This document shows positions 50,337 to 59,615 of a DNA stretch of 60,061 bases, piece after piece. The notes under the pieces are model-generated. The model was not told where the DNA came from, searched no databases, and worked only from the letters and a program-made list of their open reading frames with translations. Every line of letters starts with the position of its first letter. Positions within the stretch are counted from its first letter, which is position 1. The translations under genes were made by a program, and so were the position numbers. Location: positions 1 through 60,061 of the forward strand of contig ADNK01000994.1 in NCBI GenBank assembly GCA_000320545.1. The letters run 5' to 3'. Source of the DNA: Bigelowiella natans CCMP2755. Lineage: Eukaryota; Protista; Cercozoa.

Positions 50337-51577
50337 TGGCGGAAGGTCGGCCTTCTTCAGCGCCACGAAAAAACTGCATTCTCCTTTTGAATGCATGAGA
50401 GAACTATTCAAACGAAAGAATTTTATAATTCACGGCAGTGAAGCATGCAGTCTAGAATCAATATGAAGAAAGTTTTTACTATTGAATCTAATTCGGTGCT
50501 GTTTTTCGGGCTATGCGCTGTACGTCTGTGCGTTTGTGTAGGTGTGTAGGTGTGTAGGTGTGTAGGTGAGTAGGATCTTAGGAGCGTAGAAGCGTAGGTG
50601 TAGGTGTAGGTGTGTGGGTGAAGCTGTGTTGCCAAAAAATTAAGATTATATTAAATAGTAACGTGTTCTTTTGGAGGGAAGCATGCACATCTGTTATCAA
50701 TTATCAACAATCCCATAATGTGTGTGTGTGTGTGTGTATGTATGATTGGCGTAGGTTCGAGCAAGGAGGAAACATGTCTTTTTGTAGTTCGAATCTTAGG
50801 AATTCTAGTTGGATGCACACTGGTAGGGTACGGAATAGCGATGCTCTTCGTTGGATCTGCACAAAGTAACGAACCATATAAGTGTTCTCTGACATAAACT
50901 GATTCATATTTTTGAATCACAGATATTAGAGGCTACATTGCCAACGTGTACCTGGCATGCTTTGGTATCCTCATCATACTCGCCGAGGTCCGAATGGATT
51001 TTCTAGTCGCCTACTTCAAGTTCTTACGCAACGGCTTTGGACTAGGTCATATCTCACTATTGAGCTGAATTTGCGGCAACCTACGTCTAACCATTGTTCA
51101 CATCTCGCTTTGGCGAAAATTAAAACGTTACAGATATATCCTATTCTCCATGAAGATATCGCATGAATGAAGTCTGACGGTGTTTCTCAACGTCGTGTGC
51201 TACGATGTGTGCCTGACATCTTGAATTACTCTTTGGTGCCAGGGGGATTCTACATATTTGTCGGATTCATGGCGTTATCTTCTGACTGGTGGTGCTACAT
51301 AATCTGTAAGTGCCCCACGATCATATGAACTCCAATACCGCTACCTTTAACACCAATACTGCCGCGACACCGCCCACTCTGCAAACGAGACTAGATGCAT
51401 TGAGGAGACTAATGCCCTTTGCATTCTCTTTTTGCTCACTATCTCTTAGTGGCAGTCTGTTGCACGGTCGGCGTCATGTATTGTGGATCTGCGTGCGTGT
51501 GCAAGGATCCGCTAGATGAGGAAGGAGTAAAGGGTGAAGCCAATGACCCGCCAGCCATGCGATCTCCAGTCGCGTGA
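50337..51577 (+). CDS. COPI-associated / TVP15-like small Golgi membrane protein
   Basis: DIRGYIANVYLACFGILIILAEVRMDFLVAYFKFLRNGFGL|GGFYIFVGFMALSSDWWCYII|LAVCCTVGVMY...SPVA* fits the Y..FG....E...F.FL....G.G.FYIF.G pattern. 5' exons uncertain. Confidence 0.8.
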
Positions 51578-52926: not shown

Positions 52927-55900
52927 TCAACTAGGAAAGCGAGATTCATCGATTTGGGCCACCGCCTTCTTTGCCAGTGCGGCTGTTTTACATGCCGCAG
53001 ATGCCTGGGCTTGTGCTGCATTGGACACGCTCGTAAATATTTTCTTCCCTATCTCCCGTCCTTGGTCCTGTGCTTCCTTGGAATCGTTTAATAAGCACAT
53101 AGGTGCTCCAAACTTCCCAGACACTGCGCTACCTTTGCCCATAAACAGAACGCCATGTCCCGCAGGCTCACCATTCTTTACTTCCCCGTCGAAATTGTAT
53201 GGCGTCGCAAGATGGGAGATCTTCCCTGGAAAGAATATCTGTCCGAGGCCGTTCGGCCGCCCGTTCTGGTGCTCACCGAAGTACCTGGCAAACCACCAAT
53301 CGGAGTGTTACATACACAAAGCAAAATTCGAAGTGCTGCGGTTCAGGCATTGTGACTCATTGTCAGTGAATATCAAAGTTTGTTGTGATGATCGTAACTC
53401 AGTTCCATCTGGGGAGGAAAAGCGGCCTAGGCCCCCTGGCCGGTTATTGCGGAACTTTCCCGCGTATATAAACCCGTTTGGGTTTGTGTACATGCCTTCA
53501 TCGAATTCTCCGTCCTTGAAACTTCCAAAGAAACGATCGCCCATCGCATTTTCCCAGTGTCCAAGCCCTTGTGCGCGGCCTTGTGAGTCCTTTTCTGTGG
53601 TCGTTGTCTGTGGCAAGCCATTCCGCAAACGTGCGGACATATCGTAGACTCGCAACCACCTGGCATTACATCGAGAACGGTTGTCATCGGTAACTATGAA
53701 AAACCACTTGATCACCACTCAGACACGTATGCACACATACGTCCACATATACAAATGAGCTGATTTCAAAGTCGATAACTTTGCCAAGTTTTGAACTAAC
53801 ACAAATTATGTAGTGCGTGCGCGGATGCGCGTTGTTTGTGTAAGGTCTCTGTTATCCTGCTGTACGCACCGAAATAATAGATGACCGCCGTGTTTCTTAA
53901 CGTTTGCCATTGCCGAGAGATGCAATTGCACTTCGCACAAGTGGCTGTCTATCCTCACATTCACTAAAACATCCCTGAACAACACATTCTGATGAAATCT
54001 ACACATGCAGAGCGTAACAATTAGAAGGAATTCGTGTACATACACAGGGAGATAGAGACTATGTGAGGCGGAGGAAGACCAAAAGATATTATTTATCATA
54101 TTGATTATATTAAATATGAAACAGAGAATTATAATGTATAGCTTGCCTGTAGCCGCCATCGGCCGGCTTCGAAATTCGATCCTTGATCCTCTCAACTTCC
54201 GCGTTTTTGAGTAACCATGTAATCGCATTGGCTACTTCCTCGCATGTATCGAATACTATCGAGCAGCGCGCGACATCTGTGAGCTTTGCCATCCGTCCAT
54301 ATTTTTCGTACACCTACAAACATACCACCGCCGAGTAAGACAGCCATTTTTACATCGAAACTGAAATCATAGAGTAGCGATGACACTTTTACAGGAACAT
54401 CAAGTTCATGTCCTGGGCATAATGCAATGCAATGTTTTTGGTGAGTGCGACTAGCCACGATACCACGAAAAAGTTGCAAGTTATTCGTGATATCGTGGCT
54501 GGCCGCACACATTAATAAAAAATTAACCATACATAAAATAATACATTCTGAAGTCAAATTTGATCATCACATGTTTCGTAAAAAATGGTCAGCCCTACTG
54601 TAGAAAAAATCCACGCGACTGTTAGTTGGCATTACCTTCCTGAGATAGCGTAATGGTTTCTTAATTGACCACTGTACTGCTGTGCCCTTCATTAGACCTC
54701 TTACGGACGCAGCGCACTTACAGGCCAGAACGAACAGAGGCCCAGTCGCTACCAGCGCTTGCTCATATCTATGATTTATAATAGACAGTAAGTGATTGAC
54801 GTTAACAACACTACCAATTCACCAAATCATCATCGAGTTATATATCTCAGCAGCGTCATGGCTTGAAGTATTACAGTTGGAGGGTTTGCGCGGCAACGTG
54901 CTCCGGCATCATGAGCTTGACGTCTGCGAAGGCCCAGCCGCTGTACTTAAAATGCACGCCAGCACCGTTACCCCCCTTTTTCTTAAATGTACATTTCGAA
55001 GCGGCTTCCGAGACTAAGCTTGGACCTTTTTCATGATCCGAAATTACCTCCCACGCCTGTGTGTATTTGGCCTTCGATTCGGCCTTCGCAGCCTCAATTC
55101 GGGGTTCTACAGAACTCCAGCTGAAAGGCCGAACAGTCCCTGCATCATCCGTAAGACGATAAGTTGTGTCACCGTTAAGCATCATATCTTCTGGTGTCGT
55201 AAATCGGGGATCTACATCTTTCCACTTGCGCGAGCTTGGCGCTTGATCAAGCCTCACTTTCTCCCACTGGGCGAAAGCACCAGAGTCAGAAAAACCACGA
55301 AGCTTGCCGAGGAGATTTCGGTGGAATCTATCTGGGCGGGAAGGCCCATAAAATTCGCACGGGATAACCCGTCCCGTGCCCCGCAGCGACGAGATCGCCA
55401 TGCGAAGAGCCACCCACTGTTCGTACCTTCGTGGTCATAACAAAAGGCAGGAACAACAGTTACAAGGCACGTCTCATTTTATGACTTGAGCCGCATAGCT
55501 ACGCATCCTGCAAATAATCACATAAACCATCAAAGAGAATTACGCTTTCGATGTCTTGGCATTAAGCTTTGTCCAGGCTACATGATCCGAAGGAAAATTC
55601 CAAAACATTGCAGTTGGCTCAAATTTTGAGGGCGGAAGGCCTGCAACTTCCGTCAGTTTGCGCTCCATTTGCCTGCTGAGATTACGCGCAGCCTCGATTC
55701 CAAATTTAACCTGTATATTATCTGCAAATGTCTGCAAGCTTGGCGTGCCTCGAGTGACATTGGCAAGCTCATTTCCAAGCTTTTCGAGCTGTTCGGGTGC
55801 TTTGTCGCGGTAAATCTCCTCCATGCAAACTTTGAGTCGGGTATAGTTGAACATCGGGATCTCAATTTTCGTATGATACTTCCCGTAAAGTTGTTTGATT

Positions 55901-56304
55901 AATGCAGCAAGATGGCCCTGTCCACCGCTCCTAATCATTTCCATGTATTGTGGCACACGGTCTCTAATTGAAGGCTCAAGGCAGAGCAACACGGCTCGGA
56001 GCTGCATTTCAAACTCCCCAAAGTCGAGTGCCCACTGAGCTTTCGCTGATGTCCCTCCTTTTTCTTCCGCAACAATCTTTCCATCTTGAATAACCTCGCC
56101 CCTGAGCACAGGAGGGGCGAACACCTCGAAGCCAGGAATATCCGTCGTTTCGATGTATCCCATAGCTACATTCTCAGGTGTAGCACTAGCTCCACTCGCC
56201 ATTTTACCGTCTACTATTTGAGGTTTAGAGGAGTTTTGTCCTTCTCCAACTTCTCCTCCTCCTCCTCGCTTTTCTCCTCCATTTGCGCTAGCCGAGCACC
56301 CCAT
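52927..56304 (-). CDS. Predicted N-acylated protein with RelA/SpoT-like nucleotidyltransferase domain and C-terminal MORN repeats (7 exons)
   Basis: Start MGCSAS; WSIKKPLRYLRK|VYEKYGRMAKLTDVARCSIVF...RIKDRISKPADGGYR|DVLVNVRIDSHLCEVQLH...GHLLFR|WLR; MORN-like FFGSFKDGEFDEG, IYAGKFRNNRPGGLG, YFGEHQNGRPNGLG and FDGEVKNGEPAGHG. Confidence 0.8.
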
Positions 56305-56568
56305 TCTGAATCGAATCTGTTCCGTGCTCTGTGCCCCAGACTTGGCTAATAAGATTAGATTCCAACTGGCTGGTAACGTTCGACACACGGAAGGCTCGGC
56401 ATCTAAACAAAAATGATCTGCATTTAGACTCGACGACAGGTGATTTTCGTTGTTCGAGAATCACCCTCAAATTCCTCCTGCGACAAGGAGAATGCAGCTG
56501 TCTTTCAAAGGCATGCGGGCGCATCCTTTGGGCACAAAAACAGGGCAAATGAAGCGTCCACAAAATCC
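56305..56568. promoter_or_regulatory. Putative bidirectional promoter region
   Basis: Only 264 bp separate the divergent ATGs at 56304 (-) and 56569 (+). Confidence 0.55.
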
Positions 56569-57901
56569 ATGTCGCCGTTGTGCGCCATCGCCGTTACCCT
56601 CCTCGTCTCCGCCTTCGCTAGGCCTTCCGCCTCGAATGGTTGGGTAGCCCACAGCAGGGGATCCGAATCTCAATGGAAGAGGGTGGAGGCCCTGCCAACC
56701 CCGCGAGACACCCTCTCTTTAGTCACCCTGCCAGACGGCACAGTGTTGGCTTTGGGGGGCACAGAAAGCGGGAGCAATGAAATCTCTGATGCCGCAGAGC
56801 GTTACTTCCCAGGAAATAACACTTGGGTCGCCGTTCCCGCAATGCCATCTCCACGGGAAAACTTTGGAGCAGCGTACTATGATGGCAAGGTTTTTTGTGT
56901 AGGCGGGTGGGGGCCTACGCCGTCGACTCCGACATCGTCCGTAGATGTTCTGGACGTGGCCACATGGACTTGGTCAAGGGTAGATCGCCACCTTCAACAC
57001 TGACCCATCTCATACTTAAGTAACGATTGCATGTGCATGATGTGTCAGGGCCCTCCCCTTCCCACAACAAGGGCAGGCACGAGAGCTGTCGGTGTTAAAT
57101 CCGGGGTCCTCGTAGTAGGAGGGTTCACTGAGCCTTTCAGCAACACTTCCTACCACAAAGACACCTTGTTGCTCTCGAATGCAAGTGGGAATTGGAAGCA
57201 AACCAAGACAGGCCTGCATCATAGACGAAGCAATATTGGCCTGACTGCATCATTGACAACCGGAAAGGCCTATGCAGTGGGAGGAGGCGAGGTTCATGCA
57301 GGGTACAACACCTCTGAGGCGTTCGATCCCAGCACCGAAGAATGGGAGCCTGTTGGGCAGCTGCAGGTTGCTAGAAGTTACGAAGGACTGGCGCCTGTCA
57401 CTATCGACGGAGAAGAATACATTTACTCAATCGGCGGAATGACGGAGGTTCTTCACAGCGGCTACACCTGCTTCTTTTTTCATGTTCTCTTCCCAACTAA
57501 AGTCTGGGAAATGCATTTCCTCATACCTCTTCTTGTTTTCTTTTTGTCATATCAGGTTCCCCTATTTGACCCAACAAACTCGGTTGAGAGGCTATCCGTG
57601 AGCTCGGGCAAATGGGAAGAGGCGGAGTCTCTCCCTGTAGCCAGAGGCGGGCTTGCCGCAACAACGATCGTCAAGGGAACCTCGATATTGGTCGTCGGTG
57701 GAGAGTATTCATTTGTCTTGTCGCCCTAGCCATGTAGAATTTGGGGGTGTATGTGTGCGTTATGTTCAGGAGCAACGCCCTTACTATTTATTTCTCTTTC
57801 TGGTGCATGCTACGTCGCAGAGCATCACTAAGTTGATTACACATTTCCCCCATCTTGCCTTTTATATCACCGCCACGATTACACAGCCAGTGCGTGCCTA
57901 A
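56569..57901 (+). CDS. Secreted Kelch-repeat beta-propeller protein
   Basis: Signal peptide MSPLCAIAVTLLVSAFA; six Kelch blades with GG and downstream Y/W (VLALGG..ERYFPGNNTW, VFCVGG..TWTW, LVVGG..GNW, YAVGG..TEEW, YSIGG..SGKW, LVVGG). 3' end uncertain. Confidence 0.9.
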
Positions 57902-59235: not shown

Positions 59236-59615
59236 CATATATTTCAATGCGATTCACTCTAGGTCATGTTAAGTATTTTTTGCAGATTGAATTCTGTCCA
59301 ACCCTCCCCCTCCCCCTCCCCCTTCGTTACCTTCTGCAGTCTGCGCGTTTTGGGATCCATTGTGGTCTCCCATAGCTGTCGCGGCATCATCTCACCCAGC
59401 CCCTTAAAACGCTGCACCTAGCAAGTAAGACAGAGATTATCACCGACAATTGATACGACTCCTCCTCCTCCTCCTCCTCCTCTTCCTCCTTCTCTTCCTA
59501 CTACTGCTACTACTATTACTACTACTACTACTACTTCAATCGGTTTGGATGATCTCCGTCCCTTCATCGCCTCCTCTCTCGCCTGCTCAAGGCCTTCCTC
59601 GTCCCATGTGTACAC
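58804..59615 (-). CDS. gyrB: 3' exons of organellar DNA gyrase subunit B (5' part outside the window)
   Basis: [29 protein letters not shown]|[20 protein letters not shown]|[22 protein letters not shown] is the canonical GyrB C-terminal tail. Confidence 0.96.

Follow-up and report, generated by a model that had tools for sequence, protein, structure and literature searches.

Whether a eukaryote could make the alarmone (p)ppGpp (guanosine tetra- and pentaphosphate) on its cytosolic membranes is the question raised by one gene of the rhizarian alga Bigelowiella natans CCMP2755. The gene occupies positions 52927-56304 on the minus strand of contig ADNK01000994.1 (assembly GCA_000320545.1), of which positions 1 to 60,061, the whole stretch of DNA analyzed here, are termed the window. 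Joining of seven minus-strand exons yields a stop-free frame of 778 residues that begins MGCSAS and contains, in order: an acylation-type start; an unnamed conserved N-terminal domain (N-domain); a synthetase domain of the RelV/Apk1 type; and MORN repeats followed by a C-terminal helix. Beyond sequence, splicing, fold and conservation we infer, with a probability of about one half, that the product is an N-acylated, cytosol-facing, RelV-type pyrophosphokinase that would make (p)ppGpp locally, under the control of the N-domain and with its MORN-helix module bound to a partner.

The gene is nuclear, spliced and transcribed. Exon 1 (55544-56304, residues 1-254) carries the start codon and MGCSAS, a linker and a helical region, and exon 2 (54875-55426, residues 254-438) contains the N-domain. 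The synthetase domain (53635-54768, residues 438-581) extends over exons 3-6. Its first helix and the Syn1-type motif K474-x3-R478-x3-K482 are encoded by exon 3 (54636-54768, residues 438-482). Exon 4 (54147-54313, residues 483-538) supplies Y487, the catalytic-type D495 (54277-54275), R498, K526-D-R528 and G536-Y537; exon 5 (53870-53974, residues 538-573) supplies D539, L541, N543, the catalytic-type E552 (53934-53932), Q554, H556, K564 and G568-H569. The final synthetase helix (R576) and MORN repeats 1-3 follow in exon 6 (53399-53659, residues 573-660), and exon 7 (52927-53284, residues 660-778 and the stop codon) adds the last two MORN repeats (4-5) and, at the C-terminus, a helix rich in Ala. 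Introns 1 to 6 measure 117, 106, 322, 172, 210 and 114 nt. The fourth (53975-54146) has GC-AG borders and interrupts the GYRD motif between its R and its D.

This arrangement can be read directly from transcripts. Among the 24 sequencing runs listed, two RNA-like runs from two studies (X15 and X16) account for 0.69 of the sampled words; their RNA class is a guess by software, and their contigs do skip introns. All six predicted introns are skipped at the predicted lengths in contigs of X15 and X16, two of the six in a marine metatranscriptome (X17), and none of the six in a DNA run (X1). Since a single X15 contig of 2,111 nt (2,077 nt in X16) begins upstream of the start codon and covers exons 1-6, one transcript carries both the synthetase domain and the first MORN repeats, and the possibility that the domains belong to separate genes falls away. 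The joint between exons 6 and 7 comes from shorter overlapping contigs, with a short side of 28 letters in X15 and X16 and 57 in X17. The splicing proposed in an initial annotation of this DNA is the one seen in these RNA joints, unlike that of the public model, JGI Bigna1/72502; the MGCSAS start and the motifs quoted in that annotation are also present in the order given, at residues 473, 493, 526 and 551. Bigna1/72502 equals the spliced model except for 16 extra residues within GYRD and 29 in the MORN part. It misses the GC-AG intron 4, which places 16 false residues in the active site. Both inserts were rejected: the RNA contigs splice them out; their predicted local distance difference test (pLDDT) values are below 50; and they lower the profile score. 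An alternative acceptor after intron 1, giving a 36-nt intron, was also rejected, as it runs into a stop and the RNA shows 117 nt.

No in-frame Met lies upstream, and MGCSAS stands at the first in-frame ATG within the RNA contig, although contigs cannot fix the true start. Upstream, in the longer RNA contig (56305-56434), two out-of-frame ATGs (56402-56423) open short upstream open reading frames. The marine metatranscriptome contig, a single one at a depth below 5, carries a one-base difference and a 3-nt insertion at 56152 and 56252; because it differs at these positions, a wild relative appears to express the gene as well.

According to profile and structure searches, the fold of residues 438-581 is that of RelA/SpoT synthetases, as the initial annotation had proposed. 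Its term nucleotidyltransferase holds for the fold and not for the reaction, which is pyrophosphate transfer. Exons 3, 4 and 5, searched singly, give no match to PF04607 (RelA_SpoT). With a Pfam cut-off of 27 bits, this family scores 19.2 bits (E 0.0015) with the mis-spliced public model, 24.6 bits (E 3.3e-5) with the correctly spliced ortholog and 35.5-36.7 bits, above the cut-off, with P0026, P0193 and P0176, members of the branch described below. A profile built from 84 relatives outside that branch, rows themselves retrieved with this query, gives 140 bits for the spliced protein and 124 for the public model; 200 shuffled domains reach at most 3.7 bits (188 reported). With residues 428-600 of Bigna1/72502 as the query, HMMER found 432 proteins at E <= 0.001, and the best 150 of the 432 were examined. 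Searched with a 123-sequence profile, the PDB yields Tas1 as the top non-MORN match (E 1.3e-15), then YwaC (5.4e-5), RelP (0.01) and RelSeq; a 30-sequence profile ranks them in the same way, more weakly (Tas1 E 0.0016).

The predicted structure leads to the same fold. A single-sequence prediction was unusable (pLDDT 34.8); the prediction on the larger alignment has a predicted template-modelling score of 0.62, with pLDDT 82-97 in the synthetase core. Model residues ~425-600 match CapRel (Z 11.5), RelQ (Z 10.9; root-mean-square deviation (rmsd) 2.3, 138 aligned), RelP (Z 10.4), Tas1 (Z 10.3; rmsd 2.9, 147 aligned) and SaEAS (Z 8.4); the first four alignments extend over ~140-170 residues. A search of 48,161 chains gives the same picture, with other nucleotidyltransferases (polymerase-beta-type folds) at Z <= 6.6. 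Foldseek finds RelA/SpoT-type synthetases at E 4e-5 to 4e-4, and template-modelling (TM) scores in the Atlas are 0.63-0.77 overall and 0.75-0.77 to bacterial RelA_SpoT-domain clusters. In a Pfam scan of the public model there is no HD, TGS or ACT domain at E 10 and no secretion-system domain, and NCBIfam has no match for the protein. When exon 4 and residues 435-597 were used in word-indexed searches, nothing but the gene's own public model came back (1 of 9 and 1 of 111 candidates). None of 19 candidate metagenome stretches was confirmed, and an 18-residue match occurs in 2 of 20 viral stretches.

Analysis of the active site points to an apparently intact domain. D495, R498, E552 and Q554 align with Tas1 D327, R330, E382 and Q384, and K474 and K482 align with Tas1 K305 and K313, the Tas1 numbering being counted from R330, E382 and N370 as named in PMC12691689 (here as below, publications are cited from the excerpts available). 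Across the 26 branch rows, K474, D495, R528 and D539 are each found in 26 and R498, Y537, E552 and Q554 each in 25; the exception at Y537, E552 and Q554 is the B. natans paralog alone. Residues known from tested relatives to bind ATP and Mg2+ are retained: the metal-binding Asp of Syn2 and Glu of Syn4 and the ATP-binding Lys/Arg sites are kept in 24-26 of the 26 rows. Between the protein and its ortholog, the synthetase domain is the best conserved part (109/144 identical), ahead of the MORN part (78/125) and the last helix (20/52).

Canonical RelA, RelP and RelQ enzymes carry GYxSxH at Syn3 and ExQIRT at Syn4, motifs that were checked in YwaC. Both are absent from the window protein, which has GYRDVLVN and EVQLHL instead. 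The initial annotation took GYRD and QLH as signs of a different product, a suggestion that does not hold up. The RelV/Apk1-like (EAS) signature is present (GYRD, ExQLHL, KNR/KDR and a downstream K...H), and the V. cholerae RelV entries in supplement file 2 of PMC12691689 read DLARATIV, KNRFKNP, GYRDLN and EVQLHL. The only V. parahaemolyticus RIMD 2210633 entry of that supplement, taken as VpEAS, reads GYRDLN and EVQLHL; the only Amycolatopsis azurea entry, presumed to be AaEAS, reads GYRDLQMN and EFRLHL; and GYRD occurs 329 times in file 4, which holds bacterial synthetase domains. VpEAS and AaEAS are reported to make (p)ppGpp only (PMC12691689). Because Vibrio RelV and VpEAS carry both motifs, GYRD and QLH are no sign of a new product, and RelV rather than RelA or RelQ is, by its motifs, the right comparison. 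A guanine acceptor would be expected since the nearest tested enzymes share the GYRD/ExxLHL signature, making (p)ppGpp the best single guess for the product.

The protein belongs to a family. Among the best 150 of the 432 matches, a MORN part is found in 20 and the N-domain in 17, the latter count being partly circular, as the N-domain profile was made from members; Pfam identifies three further MORN carriers among 82 relatives scanned. A tree was built from 146 of the 154 domains, after removal of eight with coverage below 70%, including two MORN carriers. In it, all 24 rows that have the N-domain or MORN group with two fragments in one branch (26/146) with support 99/98, the bootstrap being not fully settled. 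Because the tree is unrooted, contains no tested enzyme and consists of rows picked by similarity to the query, it names no donor. Branch members and their cluster mates come from B. natans, the pelagophyte Aureococcus anophagefferens and the haptophyte Prymnesium parvum, and Pelagophyceae sp. CCMP2097 is a cluster mate of a dropped row. The branch also includes a transcriptome of the dinoflagellate Gymnodinium smaydae, for which a prey origin is possible, and one labelled 'Hpha', presumably the diplonemid Hemistasia. Most of the 30 proteins looked up have no taxon name. Judged from these sequences, the layout of N-domain, synthetase and MORN, often with an acylation-type start, recurs in several unrelated algal groups; the novelty lies in the family, not in the chemistry. 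A paralog in B. natans, Bigna1/70000 (P0155 / P0006), keeps the whole layout and an MGCGSS start, has lost K482, Y537, E552, Q554 and H556, and is likely a pseudoenzyme. A second, separate eukaryotic branch of this domain comprises P0012 and about 34 related tree rows of very long proteins, with Rhodomonas salina as one cluster mate; P0012 includes hydrophobic stretches and seems to hold the domain twice.

A Met-Gly start with Cys at position 3 and Ser at position 6 is the consensus for myristoylation and palmitoylation. This pattern is present in MGCSAS (56304-56287), making myristoylation of G2 and palmitoylation of C3 likely. The acylation-type start noted in the initial annotation is enriched in the branch: among the 150 matches listed, MGxxx[ST] occurs in 7 of 25 branch members and 4 of 125 others (p 3e-4). 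The annotation's view of the N-terminus as non-plastid is likewise favored. The first 40 residues are hydrophilic (maximum Kyte-Doolittle value 0.4 over 11 residues), with no signal-peptide-like hydrophobic stretch, as judged by hydropathy; of the features of plastid long RSH proteins, the HD domain and a hydrophobic bipartite-type leader are both not found. Several branch members are fragments, and other starts include SH3, weak Dpy-30, AAA_33 and zinc-finger-like parts, a pattern which suggests that anchoring is conserved while the type of anchor varies. In P0053 and P0189, an AAA_33 start and a weak Dpy-30 match (E 0.0015-0.002, below the cut-off) stand in place of MG.

Between this start and the synthetase domain lie a low-complexity linker to about residue 90, with pLDDT mostly below 60, a helical region (residues 91-262) found elsewhere in the B. 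natans paralog only, and the N-domain (55401-55033; about residues 263-385, some 125 residues). The N-domain precedes the synthetase throughout the family. A profile search with it gave 21 matches, all with MORN and 17 annotated RelA_SpoT; of the 21, however, 15 are nearly identical sequences from a single lineage and 5 had been part of the query. No usable match to a known domain emerged in the Atlas (TM <= 0.39), in the PDB by profile (best E 0.76) or in Pfam (best E 0.031), and the fold searches barely covered residues 1-423. A Polyketide_cyc2 match on exon 2 (E 0.003, 18.3 bits vs 27.4) was rejected, the model being mainly helical there and the 82 other relatives scanned giving no such match at E 0.001. 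As a conserved element that accompanies the enzyme, the N-domain would be new.

In the C-terminal part, the presence of MORN repeats stands as initially annotated, and their number is revised from about four, ten strands in the model making about five hairpins. The tandem 23-residue beta-hairpins typical of MORN repeats are present and match MORN structures at Z 11-19. PF02493 scores 24.0 bits with exon 6, above the Pfam cut-off of 22.5, and 19.4 bits, below it, with exon 7. The sheet together with the last helix (about residues 729-772, exon 7), taken as model residues ~605-816, resembles junctophilin-2 (Z 19.4; rmsd 1.8, 173 aligned), junctophilin-1 and MORN4 (Z 16.8; rmsd 2.0, 139 aligned), with TIC100 and radial-spoke proteins ranking lower (radial-spoke Z <= 12.6). 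By sequence, the top matches of the MORN part are ciliary (FAP266, MORN2), whereas structure favors junctophilin-2 and MORN4 over radial-spoke proteins; the ciliary site suggested initially is not singled out, and a ciliary location is possible rather than indicated. The backing helix is present only in the ortholog and the paralog of the B. natans lineage. MORN repeats have been argued to bind protein and not lipid (PMC7725318).

Taken together, the parts suggest how such an enzyme could work. The acylated protein, with myristoyl at G2 and palmitoyl at C3, would sit on the cytosolic face of a membrane. There it would transfer pyrophosphate from ATP to the 3'-OH of GTP or GDP, yielding (p)ppGpp, probably only upon being switched on locally. 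The N-domain may restrain the active site; such a brake is to be expected because RelV-type domains that are free in the cytoplasm are lethal to cells. The junctophilin/MORN4-like module of MORN sheet and helix could bind a partner that positions or triggers the enzyme.

Several observations weigh against this proposal. The residue four positions after the Syn3 Tyr is L541 and not the Asn of RelV/Apk1-like enzymes; the tested enzymes compared have no hydrophobic residue there (N in RelV, Apk1 and SaEAS; H in RelA and RelQ; Q in the A. azurea entry). F572 replaces a nearly conserved Y of H-x-x-Y (Y in 20/26). Among PDB sequences the closest match is Tas1, an enzyme that makes (p)ppApp, the adenosine counterpart, and SaEAS makes both products. 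Scored as the mis-spliced model, the protein stays below the Pfam RelA_SpoT cut-off. The top fold score belongs to the tRNA-modifying CapRel, within 1 Z of RelQ. Finally, P0011, P0021, P0026, P0053, P0061 and P0144 extend well upstream of the N-domain and have no MG start.

One possibility would be an anchored pyrophosphokinase with another acceptor, making (p)ppApp like Tas1 or Apk2, or acting on an RNA 3' end or a cofactor; we consider this unlikely, if well worth keeping in mind. In such an enzyme, L541 and N543 as arranged here, along with the additional N-domain, would give the acceptor site another shape. Position 541 is L in 20 and L or M in 23 of the 26 branch members, Tas1 and the tRNA-directed CapRel (Z 11.5) lead the sequence and fold comparisons, and the N-domain accompanies MORN in 21 of 21 matches (17 of them RelA_SpoT-annotated), as a specificity module would. 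However, GYRD-x-L-x-N is common in bacterial relatives of the secreted-effector type, with L in 41 of the 84 rows outside the branch and, in file 4 of PMC12691689, 15 cases of GYRDVL, 14 of GYRDIL and 4 of GYRDLL; because of this frequency it is not a eukaryotic innovation. The position varies among bacterial relatives too (K in P0003 and P0004, M in P0002). All tested GYRD enzymes found make (p)ppGpp, and Tas1 and Apk2 carry GxN, not RD, at Syn3. SaEAS is reported to make both nucleotides, and Apk1 and Apk2 (p)ppApp (PMC12691689, PMC12226406); motif swaps failed to convert Apk2 (PMC12226406). Since Tas1 makes (p)ppApp, SaEAS makes both and the Apk2 swaps failed, motifs predict the acceptor poorly.

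A domain that binds nucleotide with little or no turnover, in a protein that serves as a membrane scaffold or sensor like the paralog, is a more doubtful alternative still. Because Bigna1/70000 keeps its layout and MGCGSS despite a degenerate site (K482, Y537, E552, Q554 and H556 lost), the layout can evidently persist without catalysis; the Syn3 N/H is absent from the window protein, and no antitoxin or hydrolase is known for it. Yet both acidic metal ligands and Q554 are kept in 25 of 26 branch members, over four or more lineages, and the paralog itself shows how rapidly catalytic sites decay once free to change. A latent effector of suicide or defence, which would use the MORN groove to sense a protein of a virus, parasite or prey and then drain ATP and GTP, is improbable: the closest bacterial relatives among the matches carry eCIS, PAAR, VgrG or toxin domains, a phage relative precedes a small open reading frame and a predicted alarmone hydrolase, and cytoplasmic VpEAS is lethal (PMC12691689), but one layout in one branch over distant protists fits housekeeping or signalling better than a fast-changing weapon, and transcription is steady in two studies.

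If the membrane-anchored (p)ppGpp synthetase is real, eukaryotic alarmone signalling would be independent of the plastid, with its chemistry on cytosolic membranes rather than inside the chloroplast. In the available text of PMC10107265, (p)ppGpp synthesis in eukaryotes is described for plastids, and a passage on animals raises as an open question that no obvious synthetase partner exists for MESH1, the hydrolase of the cytosol. More broadly, and only tentatively, marine protists may share old membrane-anchored RelV-type alarmone synthetases, either vertically kept or widely swapped, that are gated by N-domain and MORN and independent of the plastid; as part of that reading, the inactive B. 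natans twin could tune the active copy. The family was overlooked, it would seem, because the public gene model breaks the active site at the mis-spliced intron. A conserved, expressed and apparently intact RelV-type domain in a cultured alga makes extraplastidic alarmone synthesis directly testable, with the degenerate paralog of the same genome as a natural negative control.

Among mobile elements, the best match in a plasmid collection is a RelV-like Photobacterium gene (E 7e-6). Photobacterium sp. DA100 (L004:2669-4501) has two tandem RelV-like genes, both with K for the Syn3 Asn. The best phage match (E 0.1) is a GYRD-type synthetase protein of Bordetella phage PHB04 (L003:3074-5339), in the order portal gene, synthetase, 70-residue open reading frame and predicted alarmone hydrolase; this order resembles apk2-iapK-aph1, and the PHB04 motifs are of RelV type. 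Within the window, a Kelch-repeat gene (56570-57730, plus strand; Pfam Kelch on both open reading frames) lies head to head with the synthetase gene, whose RNA contig ends some 140 nt away; RNA covers the Kelch gene from about 56573, and a promoter common to both genes is possible. A minus-strand exon at 59262-59417 has a PF00986 match (E 4.9e-17), to the C-terminal end of DNA gyrase B, and probably belongs to a gene for an organelle-targeted gyrase. A small spliced membrane-protein gene lies at 50655-51330 on the plus strand, one exon of which matches COPI_assoc (PF08507, E 1e-6).

As described in the excerpts available, published eukaryotic RSH proteins comprise plastid long RSHs, MESH1 and scattered divRel (PMC3153485, PMC6881373, PMC10107265). 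Literature searches for a RelV-type MORN fusion, for ppGpp with MORN, for eukaryotic RelV and for ppGpp in Bigelowiella found nothing, most subscription papers lying outside their reach, and neither 'eukaryot' nor 'Bigelowiella' occurs in the six supplements of PMC12691689. The divRel proteins are synthetase-only eukaryotic RSHs, thought to be horizontally acquired (Atkinson 2011, PMC3153485) and recorded in Dictyostelium as well as in three ascomycetes and two diatoms; they are set apart here by description only, the text available of that paper describing no RelV type, MORN fusion or acylation. RelP, RelQ and the long RSHs (Rel/RelA/SpoT and plastid RSH1-4) share the fold of the window protein (Z 8-11), which lacks their GYxSxH and ExQIRT motifs, HD, TGS and ACT domains and plastid-type leader. 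Junctophilin-1/2 and MORN4 have a MORN sheet and backing helix in common with it, at ~21-30% identity; the window protein is without a C-terminal transmembrane anchor.

Closer in type are the bacterial enzymes. Tas1/Apk1 (PDB 6OX6), Apk2 and SaEAS (8VX3) carry GY-x-G-x-N, and their product is (p)ppApp, or both nucleotides in the case of SaEAS; unlike the window protein, they are secreted toxins or enzymes. Tas1 has been termed a divergent homolog of the RelV subfamily (PMC7229694). The entry presumed to be AaEAS, which is linked to a type VII secretion system, shares GYRD-x-x-x-N and GH-x-x-E-x-x-L-H-L; AaEAS itself is an LXG effector from a bacterium, probably accompanied by an immunity gene, and shows Q at Syn3 +4 and E-x-R, not E-x-Q. 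RelV consists of one domain that follows a Sec signal peptide and has N at Syn3 +4. The window protein instead has an acylation-type start, two extra N-terminal regions, L541, MORN repeats and introns; it is, by sequence, RelV-type but not an EAS, as the export signal is missing. What it shares with RelV and VpEAS is the whole run of synthetase motifs, K-x3-R-x3-K, D-x2-R-x-(T/S)-I-V, K-(N/D)-R-x-K-x-P, GYRD, E-V-Q-L-H-L and K-x3-G-x-H, and its ortholog is 27% identical to a Photobacterium RelV-like protein over 94 residues (pairwise E 4e-11).

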